Shown here in pieces: positions 4,295 to 46,920 of a stretch of DNA of 64,000 nucleotides; within the stretch, counting starts at the first letter, position 1; each line of letters opens with the position of its first letter. A program made the position numbers and the translations under genes. The stretch comes from Acidimicrobiia bacterium (GTDB taxonomy: Bacteria > Actinomycetota > Acidimicrobiia > Spongiisociales > ZC4RG35): NCBI GenBank assembly GCA_040880725.1, contig JBBDHV010000039.1, positions 6,481 to 70,480 of the forward strand, written 5' to 3'. The notes beneath the pieces were generated by a model. The model was given only the letters and a program-made list of their open reading frames with translations. It was not told the DNA's origin and did not search any database.

Positions 4295-5311
4295 TCAAGA
4301 AAGTCCGATGGCGCGCATTGCGCCTTCCAACTCGGGGAGTGTCACCGGCTCGACCACCGGATCGCCCACGTCTCGCAGCAGCACCATGCGAATCCCTTCG
4401 GCAGTCCGCTTCTTGTCGCGTTGGCACAGTTCCACCGCCGCAGCCAACGAAACCCCGGCCGCGGCCACGGGAAGTCCGAGGTCGAAGAGAAGCGCGGTCA
4501 GCCATCGGTGATCGAATCCGTAGCGGGAGTTGGAGATCACTGCAGCCGCGACCATGCCGACACTCACGGCGTGGCCGTGCGGGAGCGGCGCGAGGATCTC
4601 GACTGCGTGGCCGACGGTGTGCCCGAAGTTGAGAATCGCCCTGCGCCCGCGTTCTTGGAGGTCGTCGCGGACGACGTCGGCCTTGACGGCGATCGCCCGG
4701 GGGACAACCACCTCCAGGTTCGCTTTGAGTCCGGCGCGCGCGTACTCGTCGACGATCGCCGGATCGGCCAGCAGGCCGGCCTTGAGGATCTCCGATGTGC
4801 CTTCGCGGAGGATCTCCTCGGGGAGTTGGGAAAGCAGATTCAGGTCCACGACCACCCGCGACGGGTTCCAGAACGCCCCGACCAGGTTCTTGCCTCGTCG
4901 GTTGATGCCTGTCTTGCCGCCGATGGCGGCGTCGACCGCAGCCAAGGTGGTCGTGGGAACGAGCACCGACTCGACGCCCCGCAACCAGGTGGCGGCCACG
5001 AACCCCGCGACGTCGGTCGCCGCTCCCCCGCCCACACCGATGATCGTGTCGTGGCGGCCGAGGTTGAAGTCCGCGAGAACGTCGTACATCTCGCCGACCG
5101 CATCGAGTTCCTTCGACGCTTCGCGATCTGCGAGTTCTCCGACGACGGTCCTGACGCCCTCGAGTCCTGCGACGATCTCACGGGCGACCCGGGCGGGGAC
5201 TCCCGGCTGGGTGAACACGGCGACGGCTTCACGGCTCTGACGGGCCGGCAGCACGTCGGCGGCGTCGCCGAACACGACCTCCGAGGCGTCGGTGATGCGG
5301 ATTGGCTCCAC
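4295..5311 (-). CDS. aroB: 3-dehydroquinate synthase
   Basis: Glycine-rich NAD-binding motif GVGGGAATDVAGFVAATWLRGV and a GGKTGIN motif. The real start is probably the GTG at 5309-5311 immediately after the MITE's TA target-site duplication. The ORF-track ATG at 5392 lies inside the MITE. Confidence 0.85.
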   Translation of the reverse strand: MEPIRITDASEVVFGDAADVLPARQSREAVAVFTQPGVPARVAREIVAGLEGVRTVVGELADREASKELDAVGEMYDVLADFNLGRHDTIIGVGGGAATDVAGFVAATWLRGVESVLVPTTTLAAVDAAIGGKTGINRRGKNLVGAFWNPSRVVVDLNLLSQLPEEILREGTSEILKAGLLADPAIVDEYARAGLKANLEVVVPRAIAVKADVVRDDLQERGRRAILNFGHTVGHAVEILAPLPHGHAVSVGMVAAAVISNSRYGFDHRWLTALLFDLGLPVAAAGVSLAAAVELCQRDKKRTAEGIRMVLLRDVGDPVVEPVTLPELEGAMRAIGLS

Positions 5312-5477
5312 TAGTGGTGTGTCGCCGAAATAGGTGCGCGGTGTCTCCGAGCACATGGCGTCATCTGGCAAGGACTTCTGACGCAGTCGCACTTGGCCCG
5401 TTCGGCGAGGAGGAGGACGCCGCCAGGGGCGTCATGGGCCGGAGAGACCGCCTCATTATTTTGGCGACGTACCACTA
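5312..5477. mobile_element. MITE copy 1. The element is 162 bp (5314-5475) and is flanked by a TA target-site duplication.
   Basis: Terminal inverted repeats GTGGTGTGTCGCCGAAATA...TATTTTGGCGACGTACCAC. It is 99% identical, in inverse orientation, to the copy at 42320-42485. It has no coding capacity. It is inserted in the TA of the aroC TAG stop, at the TAGTG aroC/aroB overlap. Confidence 0.65.
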
Positions 5478-6629
5478 GAAGGTCTCGAGGCGCGCCCGGT
5501 AGGAGTCGACGTTGCGACGAAGGTCCGCGGCGGTGTCGCCGCCGAACTGTCGTTGGATCTCTTGGGCGACGACGATGGCGACCATCTGCTCGGCGACGAT
5601 TCCCGCTGCGGGCACGGCAACGACATCGGATCGCTCGTAGAAGGCCGTCTTGGCTTCCTTGGTGACGACGTCAACGGTCTGCAGGGACTTGGGCACGGTG
5701 GAGATCGGTTTCATCGCGGCCCTCACCCGCAGCACGTCGCCGTTGGTCATTCCCCCTTCGGTCCCGCCCGCCCGGTTGGTGTGGCGGGTGGGTCCGTCCG
5801 CGGTTGCGTACAGCTCGTCATGGGCCCCCGAGCCCCGCCTCGTGGCGGTGGTGAAGCCGTCTCCGATCTCCACGCCTTTGATCGCCTGGATCGACATGAG
5901 GGCCTCTGCCAGCCGGGCATCGATCTTTCGATCCCAGTGCACATGGCTCCCGAGTCCGACCGGTACCCCGTAGGCGAGGACCTCGACCACCCCTCCGAGG
6001 GTGTCACGATCGGCCCGGGCGGCTTCGATCTCGGCGATCATCGCCGCCTCGGCCGACTCGTCGAAGACACGGACTGCAGATGCGTCGATCTTTGCGAGGT
6101 CGCCGGGACCCGGGACGACCCCTTCCGGCGCGGTGACAGTCCCGATCGACACGACGTGGCTGAGGATCGAGACGTCGACCGCCGCCAGCAGGGTCTTGGC
6201 CAGATAGCCCACGACGGTGCGCGCGGCCGTTTCCCGAGCCGAGGCGCGCTCGAGGATGTTCCGCGCGTCGTGGGTGTCGTACTTCATCATCCCGACGAGA
6301 TCGGCGTGTCCGGGGCGTGGGGCGGTGAGCTTCTTCTTGGCCACGCCGGGATGCGGGCTCATCTCCTCGGACCACTTCGCCTCGTACTCGGTGTTGCGGA
6401 CCACCACTGCCACAGGAGAGCCCAGCGTGCGTCCGTGGCGCACACCGCCGAGGATCTCCAGTTCGTCCTGTTCGATCTTCATCCGCCCGCCCCGGCCGAA
6501 ACCCAAACGACGGCGGGCGAGTTCGGCACCGATCTCGTCGACCAGCACGGGGAGGCCCGCAGGGAGCCCCTCGACGATGGTGACGAGCGCCGGACCGTGG
6601 GATTCACCTGCGGTGAGGAATCTGAACAT
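5475..6629 (-). CDS. aroC: Chorismate synthase
   Basis: 384 aa, [27 protein letters not shown], the canonical chorismate synthase N-terminus. The stop TAG is formed by the TA target-site duplication plus the first G of the MITE. Confidence 0.9.
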
Positions 6630-33134: not shown

Positions 33135-34247
33135 TCAGCCCGGGACACCATTCGCGCGCCGTTCGATGACGGTGTGATGATGATCTGTGAAAGTCCCCGC
33201 CGCTATCGCGGCACGGGTCTGGGCCATCAACCCCAGCGTGTAGGCGAGATTGTGGATCGACAGGAGCCGGAACACCGAGAGCTCTTTGGTGGACAGCAGA
33301 TGACGGAGATAGCTCCGGCTGACCTGGGAACACGCGAGGCAGGTGCACTCGTCGTGGAGGGGCCGCGGGTCGGCGCGGTACTCGGACCGCCGGAGGTTGA
33401 AGTCGCCGTCCGGGGTGAGCACCCGCCCGTGACGGGCGAGACGGGTCGGCCAGACGCAGTCGAACAGGTCACATCCCCGGGCGACCGCGGCGAGGACTCC
33501 CTCGGCATCGCCGAGGCCCATCACATACCGGACCCGGTCGGCGGGCAGCTCGGGCACCCCGGCCTCCAGCGCCAGATCCCGTTCCTCGGGGCTTTCGCCT
33601 ACCGACAACCCGCCGATGGCGTACCCGTCGAAGTCCAGCGCGGCGGTCTCTCGGGCGCTCCAGACGCGAAGATCAGGATCGGTTCCCCCCTGCACGATGC
33701 CGAAGAGCGCCTGATCAGGATTGGTGTGGACGTCCCGGCAGCGTTGCGCCCACCGCAGCGTCTGCTCGAGTGCCGCCTGCACGGCTTCCCGGGCAGCGGG
33801 CAGCCCGATGAGCACGTCGAGCACCATTGCCACGTCGGCACCGAGCAGCTGCTGGACCCGCATCGCCTCCTCCGGCGACAGGCGCACTTCGGACCCGTCG
33901 TAGGTCGATCGGAACACCGCCTCTTCTTCGGTGACCGTCGGATCCAACGAGAAGATCTGATAGCCGCCCGAGTCCGTGAGCGTCGGTCCGTTCCACCCCT
34001 GGAACGCGCCGAGACCCCCCATCGCCGCCACGGTCTCCGCACCCGGCCGCAGCATCAAGTGATACGTGTTGGACAGCACCATCTGGGCCCCCACCCCCGC
34101 CAGGTCCGTCGAGTCGAGCCCTTTCACCGCCCCCCGGGTCCCCACCGGCATGAACGCCGGCGTCTCCACCACCCCATGGGTGAGTTCCACGCTGCCTGCC
34201 CGCGCGTTCCCATCATTGGCGGTGACGACGAGTTCCGCGGTTCTCAC
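33135..34247 (-). CDS. tgt: Queuine tRNA-ribosyltransferase
   Basis: VETPAFMPVGTRGAVKG motif and the zinc site CxCxxC...H (CTCLACSQVSRSYLRHL). The start is assigned to the GTG just 3' of the repeat array. The ORF-track extension to 34532 reads through the tandem G-rich repeats and gives a repetitive PSGGCRGVAPPHNQ peptide. Confidence 0.85.
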   Translation of the reverse strand: MRTAELVVTANDGNARAGSVELTHGVVETPAFMPVGTRGAVKGLDSTDLAGVGAQMVLSNTYHLMLRPGAETVAAMGGLGAFQGWNGPTLTDSGGYQIFSLDPTVTEEEAVFRSTYDGSEVRLSPEEAMRVQQLLGADVAMVLDVLIGLPAAREAVQAALEQTLRWAQRCRDVHTNPDQALFGIVQGGTDPDLRVWSARETAALDFDGYAIGGLSVGESPEERDLALEAGVPELPADRVRYVMGLGDAEGVLAAVARGCDLFDCVWPTRLARHGRVLTPDGDFNLRRSEYRADPRPLHDECTCLACSQVSRSYLRHLLSTKELSVFRLLSIHNLAYTLGLMAQTRAAIAAGTFTDHHHTVIERRANGVPG

Positions 34248-34249
34248 TG

Positions 34250-34500
34250 TTTGATTGTGCGGGGGGGCGACCCCCCTGCACCCCCCGGACGGCGCGGCTG
34301 CCCTCGTCGGCTCACCGGGGGTCGCGCTCGATGACTCATGACGGTGGGTGGTCGCGGAGGTTTGGGTCGCTGCTTGATTGTGCGGGGGGGCGACCCCCCT
34401 GCACCCCCCGGACGGCTTGATTGTGCGGGGGGCGACCCCCCGGCACCCCCCGGACGGCGCGGCTGCCCTCGTCGGCTCACCGGGGGTCGCGCCCTGTGAC
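34250..34500. repeat. Tandem array of three copies of a palindromic G7-CGA-C6 hairpin repeat unit of about 105 bp. Copies one and three are full-length; the middle copy is truncated to about 42 bp.
   Basis: The core TTGATTGTGCGGGGGGGCGACCCCCCTGCACCCCCCGGACGG recurs at about 34250, 34376 and 34418. Copies 1 and 3 extend to ...CGCGGCTGCCCTCGTCGGCTCACCGGGGGTCGCG...GACTCAT(GA)C. Confidence 0.65.
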
Positions 34501-34583
34501 TCATCGTCTGGTCTGACGCGGGTGAGGACCACGGTGGGCGAAGCTGCGGGTTTGGCTGGCCACGCGACTCAGGAACTCTCCCG

Positions 34584-38926: not shown

Positions 38927-39490
38927 CTAGGTCAAGTCCAGCAGCATCTGGTGGATGCGGGTGTCTTCGGTCAGTTCGGGATGAAAGGAGGTACCGAGAA
39001 TGGTGCCCTGCTGCACCATCACCGGGTGCTCGTCGACGGTGGCAAGGACGTCGACCGAACTCCCCACCTTTGCCACCCAGGGGGCACGGATGAAGACGGC
39101 GTGGAAGGGAGCGTCGAGACCGTCGATGTCGATGTCGGCTTCGAACGAATCGTTCTGGCGTCCGAACGCGTTGCGCTGGACGACGACGTCGAGCACTCCC
39201 AGCAGGTGCTGATCGCCTTCGGTCACCGCAGAGGCTGCGAAGATCAGCCCCGCACAACTGCCATAGGTCGGAAGACCGTCGGCGATGATTCGCCGGAGCG
39301 GATCGAAGAGTCCCCAGCGCACGGCCAGTTTGCCGATGGTGGTGGATTCGCCTCCGGGCATGATGAGCGCGTCGATCCCGTCGAGATGTTCCGGAAGGCG
39401 CACCGCGCGGCCCTCGGCGCCGAGTTCCCGCACCACTGCCAGGTGTTCTCGAAAGTCTCCCTGGAGCGCGAGGACGCCGACGACCGGCAT
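38927..39490 (-). CDS. pdxT: Pyridoxal 5'-phosphate synthase glutaminase subunit PdxT
   Basis: Class I glutamine amidotransferase with a catalytic Cys (YGSCAGLI). Confidence 0.9.
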   Translation of the reverse strand: MPVVGVLALQGDFREHLAVVRELGAEGRAVRLPEHLDGIDALIMPGGESTTIGKLAVRWGLFDPLRRIIADGLPTYGSCAGLIFAASAVTEGDQHLLGVLDVVVQRNAFGRQNDSFEADIDIDGLDAPFHAVFIRAPWVAKVGSSVDVLATVDEHPVMVQQGTILGTSFHPELTEDTRIHQMLLDLT

Positions 39491-41444: not shown

Positions 41445-42316
41445 CGGATCGCCTCGAAGTCACTCGGCCAGTTGGGCTGGACGAGGTGCCACTGTTCGGG
41501 TGCCGCCCGGATGAGTGTCTCGAGTTCGTGGGCGATGGCCTGGGTGGTGGCCCGGACACGGGCAGGACGGTCGGGTCCTTCGGCGACCTGGAGCGGCGGG
41601 CGGACGACGACGTGGTGACCTCCGGCATCGAAGTAGGTGGCGACAGGCAGGATCGGTGCTCCTGTCCGAATCGCCAGGGAGGCCGGCCCCGCAGGCATCG
41701 TGGTCTTTTCGCCGAAGAACTCGACCTCCACCCCTTTGCCTCTGATGTCTCGGTCGCACAGCAGCGCGACCACGCCTTTTCGTGCGAGCACGGCCTCGAG
41801 ATCCCGGATCACCTGCCCGCCGCCGGTCGCGAGCACGATGCCGATGTCCATGGACGTGCGCAGATCCAGAAACCAGTCACGGATCCGATGATTCTTCAGG
41901 TTCTCGGCGACGGCGACCACCTCCAGTCCGAGTCGGGTCCCGACGGTCGAGGAGAACTCCCAGTTGCCCATGTGCGGGAGGGCAACGATGACTCCGCCGC
42001 TGGCATCGCGGGCCGCTTCCAGATGCTCGAGTCCTTCGACGGTGGTCCGCGCGTCGACGGTGGCTTTCCGGCGGGGACGCACCCAGAGCGCTTCGGCCCA
42101 GTACCGCCCGTACGCCCCGAAGACCGCCGACACATGAGACGACACGTCCGCTTCGGGAACTCCCATGCGGCGGGCGTGGCGCTCGACCATCGCCCGGCGG
42201 CCGGTGCCGAATCGTCCGAACGTACGGCCGGCGAGTTGGCCTGCGACGATGGCGAGACGAAAAGGGAGGAGGCCGACGAGTCCCGTTCCGACACGCATGG
42301 CCAGATAGGCCAGCAT
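41441..42316 (-). CDS. Lysophospholipid/PIM acyltransferase (LPLAT, PatA/HtrB-like)
   Basis: HX4D-type acyltransferase region (LPHMGNWE). Position equivalent to Rv2611c. Confidence 0.8.
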   Translation of the reverse strand: MLAYLAMRVGTGLVGLLPFRLAIVAGQLAGRTFGRFGTGRRAMVERHARRMGVPEADVSSHVSAVFGAYGRYWAEALWVRPRRKATVDARTTVEGLEHLEAARDASGGVIVALPHMGNWEFSSTVGTRLGLEVVAVAENLKNHRIRDWFLDLRTSMDIGIVLATGGGQVIRDLEAVLARKGVVALLCDRDIRGKGVEVEFFGEKTTMPAGPASLAIRTGAPILPVATYFDAGGHHVVVRPPLQVAEGPDRPARVRATTQAIAHELETLIRAAPEQWHLVQPNWPSDFEAIR

Positions 42317-42319
42317 GTC

Positions 42320-42485
42320 TAGTGGTCCGTCGCCGAAATAATGAGGCGGTCTCTCCGGCCCATGACGCCCCTGGCGGCGTCCTCCTCCTCGCCGAACGGG
42401 CCAAGTGCGACTGCGTCAGAAGTCCTTGCCAGATGACGCCATGTGCTCGGAGACACCGCGCACCTATTTCGGCGACACACCACTA
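42320..42485. mobile_element. MITE copy 2. The element is 162 bp (42322-42483), flanked by a TA target-site duplication, in inverse orientation to copy 1.
   Basis: Identical to copy 1 except for two substitutions in one TIR. It is inserted in the TA of the pgsA1 TAG stop, two nucleotides upstream of the acyltransferase ATG. Confidence 0.65.
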
Positions 42486-43055
42486 GGTCTTGATCTGTTC
42501 GTAGGTCGTCCAGAACCGCTGTCCGGCGGTGAACCATGCCGCGGCGACGAAGACCCACAGCATCGGCTCGATGTAGCCGGTGAGCATTCCCAGTGTGACG
42601 AGGATCACCCGCTCGGCGCGACCCATGAGGCCCCCGCGGCCGTCGATTCCGACCGCTTCGGCCTTCGCACGCATGTAGGGGATGAGGAGCGACCCTCCGA
42701 GCGCCAGCAACGACAGCAGCAGGATCCGCACTTCGCCGCGCTGGCTGACGGCGAGGCCGGTGAGGACCGCGATCTCGCCGAGCCGGTCGACGGTGGCGTC
42801 GAGGAAGCCGCCCCGTTCGGTCACCTTCCCGGAGGCCCGAGCGACAGAGCCGTCGAGTCCGTCGAGGGCCGAGCCGGCCAGGGCGACGAGTGCGCCGATG
42901 ATGATCTCGCCGACCCCGATCAGCACCGCGCCGAAGATTGCGATGAAGAGCCCGAACAGGGTCATGAAGGTCGGGGACACCCCGAGGCGGGCGAGGAACC
43001 GCCCGATCGGCTCGAGAATTCCCTGCACGCGGGGACGCACCCGCATGTCGATCAT
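42483..43055 (-). CDS. pgsA1: CDP-diacylglycerol--inositol 3-phosphatidyltransferase (PI synthase, CDP-alcohol phosphatidyltransferase family)
   Basis: D-G-x2-A-R...G-x3-D-x3-D motif (DGLDGSVARASGKVTERGGFLDATVD). Confidence 0.85.
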   Translation of the reverse strand: MIDMRVRPRVQGILEPIGRFLARLGVSPTFMTLFGLFIAIFGAVLIGVGEIIIGALVALAGSALDGLDGSVARASGKVTERGGFLDATVDRLGEIAVLTGLAVSQRGEVRILLLSLLALGGSLLIPYMRAKAEAVGIDGRGGLMGRAERVILVTLGMLTGYIEPMLWVFVAAAWFTAGQRFWTTYEQIKT

Positions 43056-45240: not shown

Positions 45241-46530
45241 ATGTCCGAGGTGACGATCCGTCACGGTGAAAAGGAGACGACCGTCCCGGTCGTCGAAGCA
45301 ACCGAGGGAAACAGCGGATTCGACATCTCGGCAGTCCGGGCCGACCTGGGTCTGGTGACCCTGGACCGCGGTTTCGGCAACACTGCCGAAAGCCCGAGCA
45401 CCGTGTCCTACATCGACGGCGAGGAAGGTGTGCTGCTGTACCGGGGTTACCCGATCGAGCAGTTGGCGGAGCACTCGAGCTTTCTCGAGGTGTCCTATCT
45501 CCTCAACTACGGCGAGTTGCCGACCGCCCATCAGCTCTCCGAGTTCGAGGAGTCGATCCGGCGCCACACCCTGCTGCGCGAGGACATGAAGTACCTGCTG
45601 GAGGCGTTCCCGCACGCAGCCCACCCGATGCAGATTCTCGCCTCGGGCGTTTCGGCGATGGCCACGTACTACCCCGACGCCCTCGATCCGAAGAACGAGG
45701 AGTCGGTCGACATTTCGGCTCGTCGCCTGATCGCCAAGGTTCCGACGATGATCGCGTTGGCGCACAAGTACAGCGTTCATCAGCCGGCGATGTATCCCCG
45801 CAACGACTTGGACTACACGGCCAACTTCCTGCACATGATGTTCGCCGTCCCCCCGGAGGACTACGAGATCGACCCCGTCGTGGTGAAGGCACTCGAAGTC
45901 TTGCTCATCCTCCACGCCGATCACGGCCAGAACTGTTCGTCCTCGGCGGTGCGACTGGTCGGCTCCGGGCAGGCCAACATCTTCTCGTCGATCTCGGCAG
46001 GGATCCACGCCCTGAGCGGCCCGCTGCACGGTGGCGCCAATCAGGCAGTGCTCGAGATGCTGCAGAAGATCACCGAGTCCGGCGACAGCGTGGACAGCTT
46101 CGTCAAGCGGGCCAAGGACAAGAACGACCCGTTCCGTCTCATGGGCTTCGGACACCGGGTGTACAAGAACTTCGACCCGAGGGCGAAGATCATCAAGCAG
46201 GCGGCCGCGGACGTCCTCGACCAACTGCACGTCACCGACCCGATGCTCGAAGTGGCGACGCAACTCGAGCAGGTCGCGTTGGAGGACGACTACTTCATCG
46301 AGCGCAAGCTCTACCCGAACGTGGACTTCTACTCCGGCATCATCTACCGGGCGATGGGTTTCCCGAACGAGATGTTCCCGGTCCTTTTCGCCTTGGGCCG
46401 CCTCCCCGGCTGGATCGCCCAGTGGCGGGAGATGAGCTCAGACCCGAAGGGCCGCATCTACCGCCCCCGCCAGGTCTACGTCGGTGCCCCCACCCGGGAT
46501 TACACCCCCATCACCGACCGAACTGCTTGA
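45241..46530 (+). CDS. gltA: Citrate synthase
   Basis: 429 aa type II citrate synthase with the conserved active-site region (HADHGQNCSS...GFGHRVY). Confidence 0.95.
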   Translation: MSEVTIRHGEKETTVPVVEATEGNSGFDISAVRADLGLVTLDRGFGNTAESPSTVSYIDGEEGVLLYRGYPIEQLAEHSSFLEVSYLLNYGELPTAHQLSEFEESIRRHTLLREDMKYLLEAFPHAAHPMQILASGVSAMATYYPDALDPKNEESVDISARRLIAKVPTMIALAHKYSVHQPAMYPRNDLDYTANFLHMMFAVPPEDYEIDPVVVKALEVLLILHADHGQNCSSSAVRLVGSGQANIFSSISAGIHALSGPLHGGANQAVLEMLQKITESGDSVDSFVKRAKDKNDPFRLMGFGHRVYKNFDPRAKIIKQAAADVLDQLHVTDPMLEVATQLEQVALEDDYFIERKLYPNVDFYSGIIYRAMGFPNEMFPVLFALGRLPGWIAQWREMSSDPKGRIYRPRQVYVGAPTRDYTPITDRTA

Positions 46531-46920
46531 TTGTGCGGGGGGGCGACCCCCCTGCACCCCCCGAACGGCGCGGCTGCCGGTGTCGGGGGTCACCTGCGGA
46601 CCCATTCCATGGCTCATGACGAGACATGATCGCGGAGGCCTGGAACGCGCGAGACGTCGCTGGCTATGAAGCGTCCTGGACCTCCGCCAGCAGATCTCGT
46701 CATGAGCCCTCGGGTGGACCCGCAGACAGACCAGGAATCGACGGCCGCGCCAAGCGGGGGGTGCCGGGGGGTTCGACCCCCTGCACAATTAAAGAGCGTC
46801 CCAGACCGCGTCGTGAAGGTTCGGTCATGAGTCATTGGGTGAATTCCCAGCCGAACGAGACCGTGCCAGCCGCGCCAAGCGGGGGGTGCCGGGGGGTTCG
46901 ACCCCCTGCACAATTAAGCA
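46526..46920. repeat. Cluster of three copies (one forward, two inverted) of the same G7-CGA-C6 hairpin repeat unit of about 105 bp, in the convergent gltA/ferritin intergenic region
   Basis: Forward copy CTGCTTGATTGTGCGGGGGGGCGACCCCCCTGCACCCCCCGAACGGCGCGGCTGCC...GGCTCATGACGAG at about 46526. Reverse-oriented copies end ...CGGGGGGTGCCGGGGGGTTCGACCCCCTGCACAATTAA at about 46800 and about 46917. Each is preceded by a (G)CTCATGAC-type motif. Confidence 0.65.

Follow-up and report, generated by a model that had tools for sequence, protein, structure and literature searches.

A MITE family of probable IS630 kinship at CTAG sites, many of them stop codons, in uncultured Acidimicrobiia

How does the same 162-bp sequence come to lie, in opposite orientations, exactly in the stop codon between two adjacent genes at two distant places in one genome, with neither gene broken? 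An earlier note on this DNA, made from the sequence alone, read the sequence as a recently moved MITE. In the window (the whole stretch of DNA analysed, 64 kb in length) the two copies and their surroundings are as follows.

5314-5475, plus strand: MITE copy 1, 162 bp (nhmmer E=3e-44), family 'forward' strand on plus
5312-5313, both strands: TA target-site duplication left of copy 1, within the CTAG at 5311-5314
5476-5477, both strands: TA target-site duplication right of copy 1, which with element base 5475 makes the aroC stop codon TAG on the minus strand
5314-5332, plus strand: left TIR of copy 1, GTGGTGTGTCGCCGAAATA (TIR pattern search)
5457-5475, minus strand: right TIR of copy 1, GTGGTACGTCGCCAAAATA (alignment and TIR pattern search)
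5475-6629, minus strand: aroC, chorismate synthase, 384 aa, its stop codon formed by TA and the terminal base of the element
4295-5311, minus strand: aroB, 3-dehydroquinate synthase, 338 aa, true GTG start at 5311-5309
42322-42483, minus strand: MITE copy 2, 162 bp, family 'forward' strand on minus
42320-42321, both strands: TA target-site duplication of copy 2, acyltransferase side
42484-42485, both strands: TA target-site duplication of copy 2, pgsA side, which with base 42483 makes a stop codon TAG on the minus strand
42483-43055, minus strand: CDP-alcohol phosphatidyltransferase, pgsA-like, 190 aa
41441-42316, minus strand: Lipid A-type acyltransferase, 291 aa, ATG at 42316-42314

Our reading, to which we give a probability of roughly 0.9, is that the element is a MITE, that is, a non-autonomous DNA transposon of the IS630/Tc1-mariner superfamily, mobilised at CTAG in the manner proposed below. 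Alignment of 5280-5510 (plus) with 42288-42518 (minus) showed that, from CTAG through CTAGA, the two copies differ at two bases, both of which lie in the right TIR of copy 1, and are otherwise identical (98.8% identity), exactly as the earlier note had counted. An inverted-repeat finder applied to the window returned the pair as arms of 169 nt at 5311-5479 and 42318-42486 that are 99% complementary. The two TIRs of a copy agree at 16-17 of 19 positions, and imperfect pairing runs on through the entire element. The degenerate TIR pattern GTGGTNNGTCGCRAAATA has four matches in the 64-kb window against a chance expectation of 0.17, and these are exactly the four element ends.

The geometry of the two junctions is precise. 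On the minus strand the aroC stop codon TAG occupies 5477-5475, its G being supplied by the last base of copy 1, and the aroB GTG (5311-5309) stands immediately 3' of the other TA of that copy. The stop codon TAG of the pgsA-like gene lies at 42485-42483 (minus strand), and the acyltransferase ATG was 2 nt past this codon before copy 2 inserted. Both pairs of flanking ORFs remain intact, and the claim that each insertion lies exactly in a TAG stop at a gene-gene junction without damage to the ORFs held good at both loci. The aroC-aroB message carries copy 1 antisense to the family 'forward' strand; copy 2 is transcribed in the sense of that strand together with its flanking genes. The G+C content, for which 70% had been given, was measured at 0.64-0.68 in the window.

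The same window holds a second intergenic repeat family, CTTGATTGTGCGGGGGGGCGACCCCCCTGCACCCCCCGGACGGCGCGGCTGCC, built on the G/C-tract palindrome GGGGGGCGACCCCCC. It has at least six copies in two clusters, partly tandem and in both orientations.

34246-34504 and 46505-46615, plus strand: second repeat family
46757-46800 and 46867-46920, inverted: second repeat family

Whether the 162 bp were inserted or had always separated these genes was decided by comparison with relatives. The aroC-aroB junction is uninterrupted (CTTCTAGTGGAC) in L149, L121/L122, L123 and L124, whose chorismate synthases are, respectively, 96%, 95%, 95% and 87% identical to that of the window. In these genomes the aroC TAG overlaps the aroB GTG by one base (junction CTTC-TAG-TG-GAC), and the junction is exactly what remains of the window sequence once the element and one TA are removed. 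The element is therefore a precise insertion rather than an ancestral spacer, and the empty TAGTG overlap that the earlier note had suggested looking for in orthologous junctions does exist. The pgsA-acyltransferase junction is empty in L140-L148, and relatives whose transferase is 93% and 87% identical have a TGA stop, 0-2 nt and then the next start codon, with no element. Both insertions are present in the near-identical MAG GCA_040904385.1 (99.6-99.9% DNA identity to the window). The insertions had been called young. This stands in so far as the copies share 98.8% identity and the nearest available relatives lack the insertions, but even these relatives reach just ~84% DNA identity (75-84% across those with empty sites); 'young' here means younger than the split from the empty-site relatives. 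In the MAG JBBDQP01 (GCA_040905965.1), which has an empty pgsA junction and shares with the window just 87% identity in the pgsA protein and 83% in that of aroC, two MITE fragments of 51-53 nt (L065 272-322 and L097 5693-5745) are 100% identical to the window copy; they could reflect recent interspecies exchange or mis-binned contigs.

Further members of the family were sought by a TIR-pattern scan of species-representative genomes, followed by blastn and an nhmmer profile; metagenome contigs were scanned second and added 10 loci. The genome TIR scan gives copy numbers as lower bounds and produced many chance matches in unrelated phyla. Whole-element homologues were found in many Acidimicrobiia MAGs, with at least 35 non-redundant full copies in MAGs and metagenomes together, at identities to the window copy from 94-96% (DATHWB01) down to ~70% (e.g. 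Candidatus Poriferisocius, WHUC01, CALAML01). At least 3-7 copies per MAG, adjoining unrelated genes, occur in WHUC01, CALAML01, DATHWB01 and LXNI01. Closed chromosomes of Acidimicrobiales (OZ242339.1, OZ246892.1 and OZ242341.1) have members of the family as well. Copies are 148-183 bp in length, mostly 162, and TIRs of 19-20 nt are kept in all subfamilies. The search patterns contained no flanking sequence, so they allow an unbiased test of target-site duplication: among the 35 full copies listed, 28 have TA on both sides and seven have no clean TA duplication. When the element and one TA are removed, CTAG remains in 22 of the 28 listed sites; the others read CTAA, TTAG or ATAA and still keep half of CTAG. 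The copies at L024 3795-3956, L048 7784-7946 and L027 244-405 have no TA duplication: CA/TG and CG/CG flank them, in each case with GTAG next, and a duplicated TIR fragment adjoins one of the three; nested insertions, mutated flanks or aberrant events are possible causes.

The census thus agrees with the duplication of TA that the earlier note had proposed to count genome-wide and, together with the alignment and the TIR pattern search, sustains its description of a two-copy MITE with TIRs and a TA duplication. Its suggestion of an IS630-like target choice was also borne out, in that the canonical IS630 site CTAG is what 22 of the 28 listed copies with a duplication occupy. Small size, non-coding sequence, TIRs, TA duplication, dispersed copies and precise empty sites, which are the features by which a MITE is recognised, were all observed. 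Neither blastn of the element against the PLSDB plasmids nor a two-TIR pattern search of viral contigs gave a match, and the literature searched does not mention MITEs in Acidimicrobiia. The family is real and previously undescribed, and it belongs to uncultured Acidimicrobiia, but it is of a well-known kind.

A candidate autonomous partner was found in related genomes. In a Microthrixaceae MAG (L057, 3007-4158), a TIR-like pair 1152 bp apart encloses a single ORF of 372 aa, and five further IS copies (L125-L129) have the same architecture and the same length of 1152 bp, with proteins of 370-372 aa across the six. The ORF of the L057 IS matches Pfam DDE_3 (E=2e-20) as well as HTH_29, HTH_23, HTH_32 and HTH_28. 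The IS begins, after C-TA, with GTGGTCCGTCGC[CT]GAAATAGCA and ends with CCAAATCCGCGACG[CG]ACCAC before TA-G. Between its left end, GTGGTCCGTCGC[CT]GAAATAG, and the MITE TIRs, 17-19 of 20 positions agree; it is this left end that each end of the MITE resembles, and the interiors are unrelated. Copies of the IS occur in Microthrixaceae and Acidimicrobiia contigs. Close homologues of the transposase number in the thousands, mostly on contigs of 1.2-2 kb, and the source annotation, where it gives a name, is IS630 family transposase. No transposase homologue or full-length IS was found in the 64-kb window by the TIR pattern or by a transposase homologue search, which upholds the earlier statement that no cognate transposase is present there; the search that had been proposed for an IS630/Tc1-family transposase with matching TIRs was successful in related genomes and failed in the window. 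We infer that a transposase family of the L057 type mobilises the MITE and that a source of it exists, or existed, in the genome to which the window belongs. The transposase ORF (L057 3007-4161, and L125-L129) has no stop codon inside the IS and reads through the right TIR as far as a TAG in which the duplicated TA is completed by the G of the target CTAG. That the MITE interior arose from the IS by deletion was considered and rejected: GGCAAGGAC is present in both, but the alignment is supported at the termini only.

These observations fit what has been described for the IS630 family, in which transposition is by cut-and-paste with duplication of TA (PMC2170065); IS630 strongly prefers the TA within 5'-CTAG-3', according to the account of Tenzen & Ohtsubo 1991 as cited in PMC2170065. 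The window element shares with that family the TA duplication, the preference for TA in CTAG and the short TIRs, and its partners L057 and L125-L129 have the HTH-HTH-DDE_3 arrangement. It differs in being 162 bp long and gene-less, with only ~20 nt per end in common with the IS, in its uncultured Acidimicrobiia host, and in a partner IS that borrows the stop TAG of its transposase from the target. A close parallel in form is RUP, the repeat unit of pneumococcus, which is mobilised by IS630-Spn1; it is a non-coding element of 107 bp with TIRs like those of IS630-family IS and insertion at TA, the high copy identity of which has been taken as recent mobility (PMC2229807). The present family resembles the RUP/IS630-Spn1 pair in its small non-coding element, IS630-like TIRs, TA target and high copy identity. 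RUP is, however, unrelated in sequence, resides in Firmicutes, and tends to land in IS elements with no reported stop-codon association.

In the mechanism that we propose, an IS630-family transposase with two HTH motifs and a DDE_3 domain, encoded elsewhere, would bind the ~20-bp TIRs, excise the element and insert it, by a cut with a 2-bp stagger, at the TA within CTAG, a rare palindrome; the TA would thereby be duplicated. The element starts with G and ends with C, so that each junction reads CTAG again and therefore contains TAG; a stop codon would in this way be restored whichever strand it is on. A good share of the CTAG sites where insertion does no harm would be C-TAG stop codons, in a genome of ~67% G+C in which CTAG is ~13-fold under-represented. 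Copies within genes would be lost, and the surviving copies would pile up on stop codons, including those at junctions where the next start codon follows 0-2 nt later. Several observations weigh against this explanation. There is no transposase gene or full-length IS within the window; what the MITE shares with the IS is the termini only, with both of its ends like the IS left end; seven of the 35 listed copies lack a clean TA duplication; and the interior shows both conservation with compensatory changes and a strand bias, neither of which simple dependence on a transposase would need.

The element is predicted to fold as one long hairpin, with -96.7 kcal/mol (z = -7.5) for the family 'forward' strand and -72.9 kcal/mol (z = -4.3) for its complement. 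When 22 copies from 8 subfamilies were aligned on the consensus structure, standard pairs filled 94.5% of its cells; sliding the partners lowered this to 31-48%. Changes on both sides were present in 16 of 45 pairs, and 0 of 500 shuffles reached the observed score, a statistic that is inflated by the relatedness of the sequences. The forward strand is the more stable in 22 of 22 copies, by 8.5-32.5 kcal/mol; cells with G.U number 113 and those with A.C 10, and in a strand-neutral self-alignment G.T exceeds A.C in 7 of the 8 subfamilies. Each ORF running across the element is either a false extension or in a wrong frame, and no small conserved ORF was found among the family copies. A scan for promoters and terminators in and around copy 1 gave no promoter-like or terminator-like signal, and Rfam 15 contains no corresponding family, the best match, to the MIR918 hairpin, scoring 26.7 bits where the gathering score is 268.

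Elements of other bacteria suggest what such a hairpin might do. The Correia/NEMIS elements of Neisseria are 100-155 bp long with TIRs and a TA target (PMC2229807), and they are co-transcribed with their neighbours as a long hairpin that RNase III cuts at the TIRs (PMC2229807; PMC10969869). They may offer the best functional analogy for a possible effect on the aroC-aroB and pgsA-acyltransferase messages. Their sequence is unrelated, the IHF site and outward promoters of Correia were not seen in the window element, and the Correia transposase is unknown, whereas the Acidimicrobiia MITE has a candidate partner IS. ERIC/IRU and YPAL of enterobacteria are palindromic MITE-like repeats at gene 3' ends whose effect on mRNA decay depends on orientation (PMC10969869); their sequences are again unrelated, and neither an IS630-type partner nor a CTAG target has been described for them. 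RUP has no reported signature of structure or function, in contrast to the covarying hairpin of the Acidimicrobiia family.

The aroB GTG has no Shine-Dalgarno-like sequence in front of it, whether the aroC-aroB junction contains the element or not. This, with the TAGTG overlap, suggests that the two genes were originally coupled by termination and reinitiation, as far as geometry is a guide. Stop and start are now 164 nt apart. In predicted folds of the transcripts, the upstream UAG pairs with a CUA 0-2 nt before the downstream start, which places stop and start at the foot of one stem; a ribosome terminating there would open this part of the hairpin and could thereby keep the genes linked. 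Cleavage of the hairpin by RNase III, as at Correia elements, is by analogy equally conceivable. The insertions may also affect the expression of aroB or of the acyltransferase gene.

The most serious alternative is that the element is a mobile MITE whose family has been kept also for a function of the single-stranded hairpin, either as an RNA processing or stability module or as a translational link between the flanking cistrons, in which case retention at stop codons would be partly adaptive. Such a function would accommodate the conservation of the hairpin across 8 subfamilies with its 16 of 45 covarying pairs and 0 of 500 shuffles, the one-sided stability in 22 of 22 copies with G.U at 113 against A.C at 10, the excess of G.T over A.C in 7 of 8 subfamilies on strand-neutral self-alignment, and the modelled pairing of the upstream UAG with the CUA before the downstream start. 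It would likewise suit the three independent insertions that split tight stop/start junctions, with gaps of -1, 0 and +2 nt, and the precedents of Correia, cut by RNase III at its TIRs, and ERIC, which affects mRNA decay (PMC10969869). Orientation, however, tells against it: relative to the gene whose stop codon is occupied, 6 copies are sense, 6 antisense and 2 convergent, so that, at 6 sense to 6 antisense, the weaker strand is the one in the host transcript in half of the cases. Read-through host transcripts, carrying either strand equally often, thus leave the strand bias unexplained. Tight junctions account for 3 of 14 occupied and 3 of 28 unoccupied CTAG stop codons, a difference that is not significant, and a preference of the element for tight stop/start junctions was discarded on this count. 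Promoter-like and terminator-like signals and an Rfam match are lacking, arm-to-arm conversion of a palindrome could mimic covariation, and kinship among the sequences inflates the shuffle statistics. Arm-to-arm conversion, an element-borne transcript or a single-stranded step are possible sources of the strand bias and the covariation. On balance we consider a selected hairpin function unlikely. In its boldest form the hairpin would be under strand-specific selection and the element 'translationally transparent': a ribosome finishing aroC or pgsA would melt the stem base and so uncover the following start codon, placed beside it by the fold, with coupling preserved across 164 nt. This draws on the modelled folds and is a good deal more doubtful still.

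Returning to a transposase-dependent MITE, one must ask why so many copies lie in stop codons. The earlier explanation was a scarcity of TA, which failed: the window contains 520 TA dinucleotides, and the scarce sequence is CTAG, which occurs 15 times where base composition predicts ~198. The two insertions themselves account for four of the 15, which leaves 13 native sites; 3 of these 13 are in stop codons, and 2 of the 3 are occupied, as against 0 of the 10 other sites. The sole CTAG stop codon in the window without a MITE (38927-38930) ends a minus-strand gene (...IHQMLLDLT*); at this position L004, the MAG locus that matches, has a Pfam SNO (glutamine amidotransferase) gene. In the family as a whole, 14 of the 28 reconstituted listed sites are the stop codon of a coding-like ORF, compared with 22 of 186 (12%) unoccupied CTAG at the same loci (Fisher p=1e-5). 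With CTAG inside coding sequence excluded, the comparison is 14 of 28 occupied against 22 of 110 unoccupied (p=0.003), an enrichment that is probably overstated, since the gene classifier is crude (~61% of bases labelled coding-like) and missed genes inflate the background of CTAG outside genes. Pfam domains reach the C-terminus in 8 of 10 affected ORFs, namely urocanase, PqqD, GreA, a DtxR-type repressor, acyl-CoA dehydrogenase, GDPD, a tRNA_SAD domain (the second additional domain of Thr/Ala-tRNA synthetases) and a glycosyltransferase. At L082 5989-6150 and L131 2252-2410, the MITE lies in a single CTAG that is the stop codon common to two convergent genes.

The simplest account is that the stop-codon insertions follow from CTAG specificity and loss of gene-disrupting copies: preference for CTAG, selection against copies that disrupt genes, and G...C termini that regenerate TAG would together produce the observed occupancy. 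One could instead suppose that the element actively targets stop codons or gene ends through some cue linked to transcription or translation, rather than simply CTAG, and the presence of half of the copies at stop codons against 12% of unoccupied CTAG, like the 2 of 3 stop-codon and 0 of 10 other CTAG sites occupied in the window, is what such targeting would give. Yet the remaining half of the copies occupy intergenic CTAG that are not stop codons, selection that removes insertions within genes yields an enrichment by itself, and the background class is inflated by missed genes. The full-length IS, moreover, uses the same CTAG sites irrespective of host stop codons, and a preference for CTAG is, in E. 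coli assays as the cited account relates them, a property of IS630 itself. Active targeting is in our judgement distinctly improbable.

Very improbable is a different machinery altogether, in which the element would be a palindromic repeat moved by REP/BIME-RAYT or IS200/IS605-type enzymes and its match to IS630 TIRs would be coincidental. REP/BIME units are palindromes of 20-40 nt that carry a conserved GT[AG]G head and leave the target unduplicated, and neither REP nor IS200/IS605 derivatives are known to duplicate their target or to have 20-bp TIRs. The whole-element hairpin and the strand bias do recall elements that are handled as single strands; against this stand the TA duplication in 28 of the 35 listed copies and termini that match an IS630-family IS at 17-19 of 20 positions and share its target. 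Membership in REP/BIME was rejected for an element of 162 bp with 20-nt TIRs and a TA duplication. Finally, the view that the 162 bp are an ancestral conserved intergenic regulatory element, to which a position between genes of conserved operons and a strong fold might have pointed, is refuted by the empty sites, both junctions being free of any spacer in relatives and the same sequence adjoining unrelated genes in many genomes, mostly with a TA duplication (28 of 35 listed copies).

The insertions also leave marks on the assemblies and annotations in which they are found. The ORF listing of the window falsely extends aroB to 5392, and the gene caller used for GCA_040904385.1 gives aroB as 365 aa (L001 8796-9893, equal to window 4295-5392), with a 27-codon false extension into the MITE; aroB is 338 aa in relatives without the element. 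Such extensions had been predicted as a product of the MITE's internal ATGs, and they are indeed false, but those at the two copies begin with GTG and TTG. The 100 nt by which L001 and the window differ are Ns of a scaffold gap. The short-read contigs L002, L005, L006, L065 and L097, which come from several assemblies, terminate within a MITE copy, which suggests that the repeat fragments assemblies, and another partial copy, near 3402 in L045, again begins at a C-TAG stop codon. In practice the MITE thus breaks short-read assemblies and causes gene callers to place N-termini too far upstream.

The analysis thereby documents a MITE family not described before, together with its IS630-family partner, in uncultured Acidimicrobiia, from MAGs of soil, saline-lake and sponge-associated origin. 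If the hairpin acts in the coupling of cistrons or in mRNA processing, the element would be a mobile regulator of operon expression, and translational transparency, if true, would explain the repeated tolerance of insertions in stop/start overlaps of essential operons. The family provides a natural example of how a 4-base target preference, in a genome of high G+C content, funnels a transposon into stop codons and operon junctions while the genes remain unbroken.
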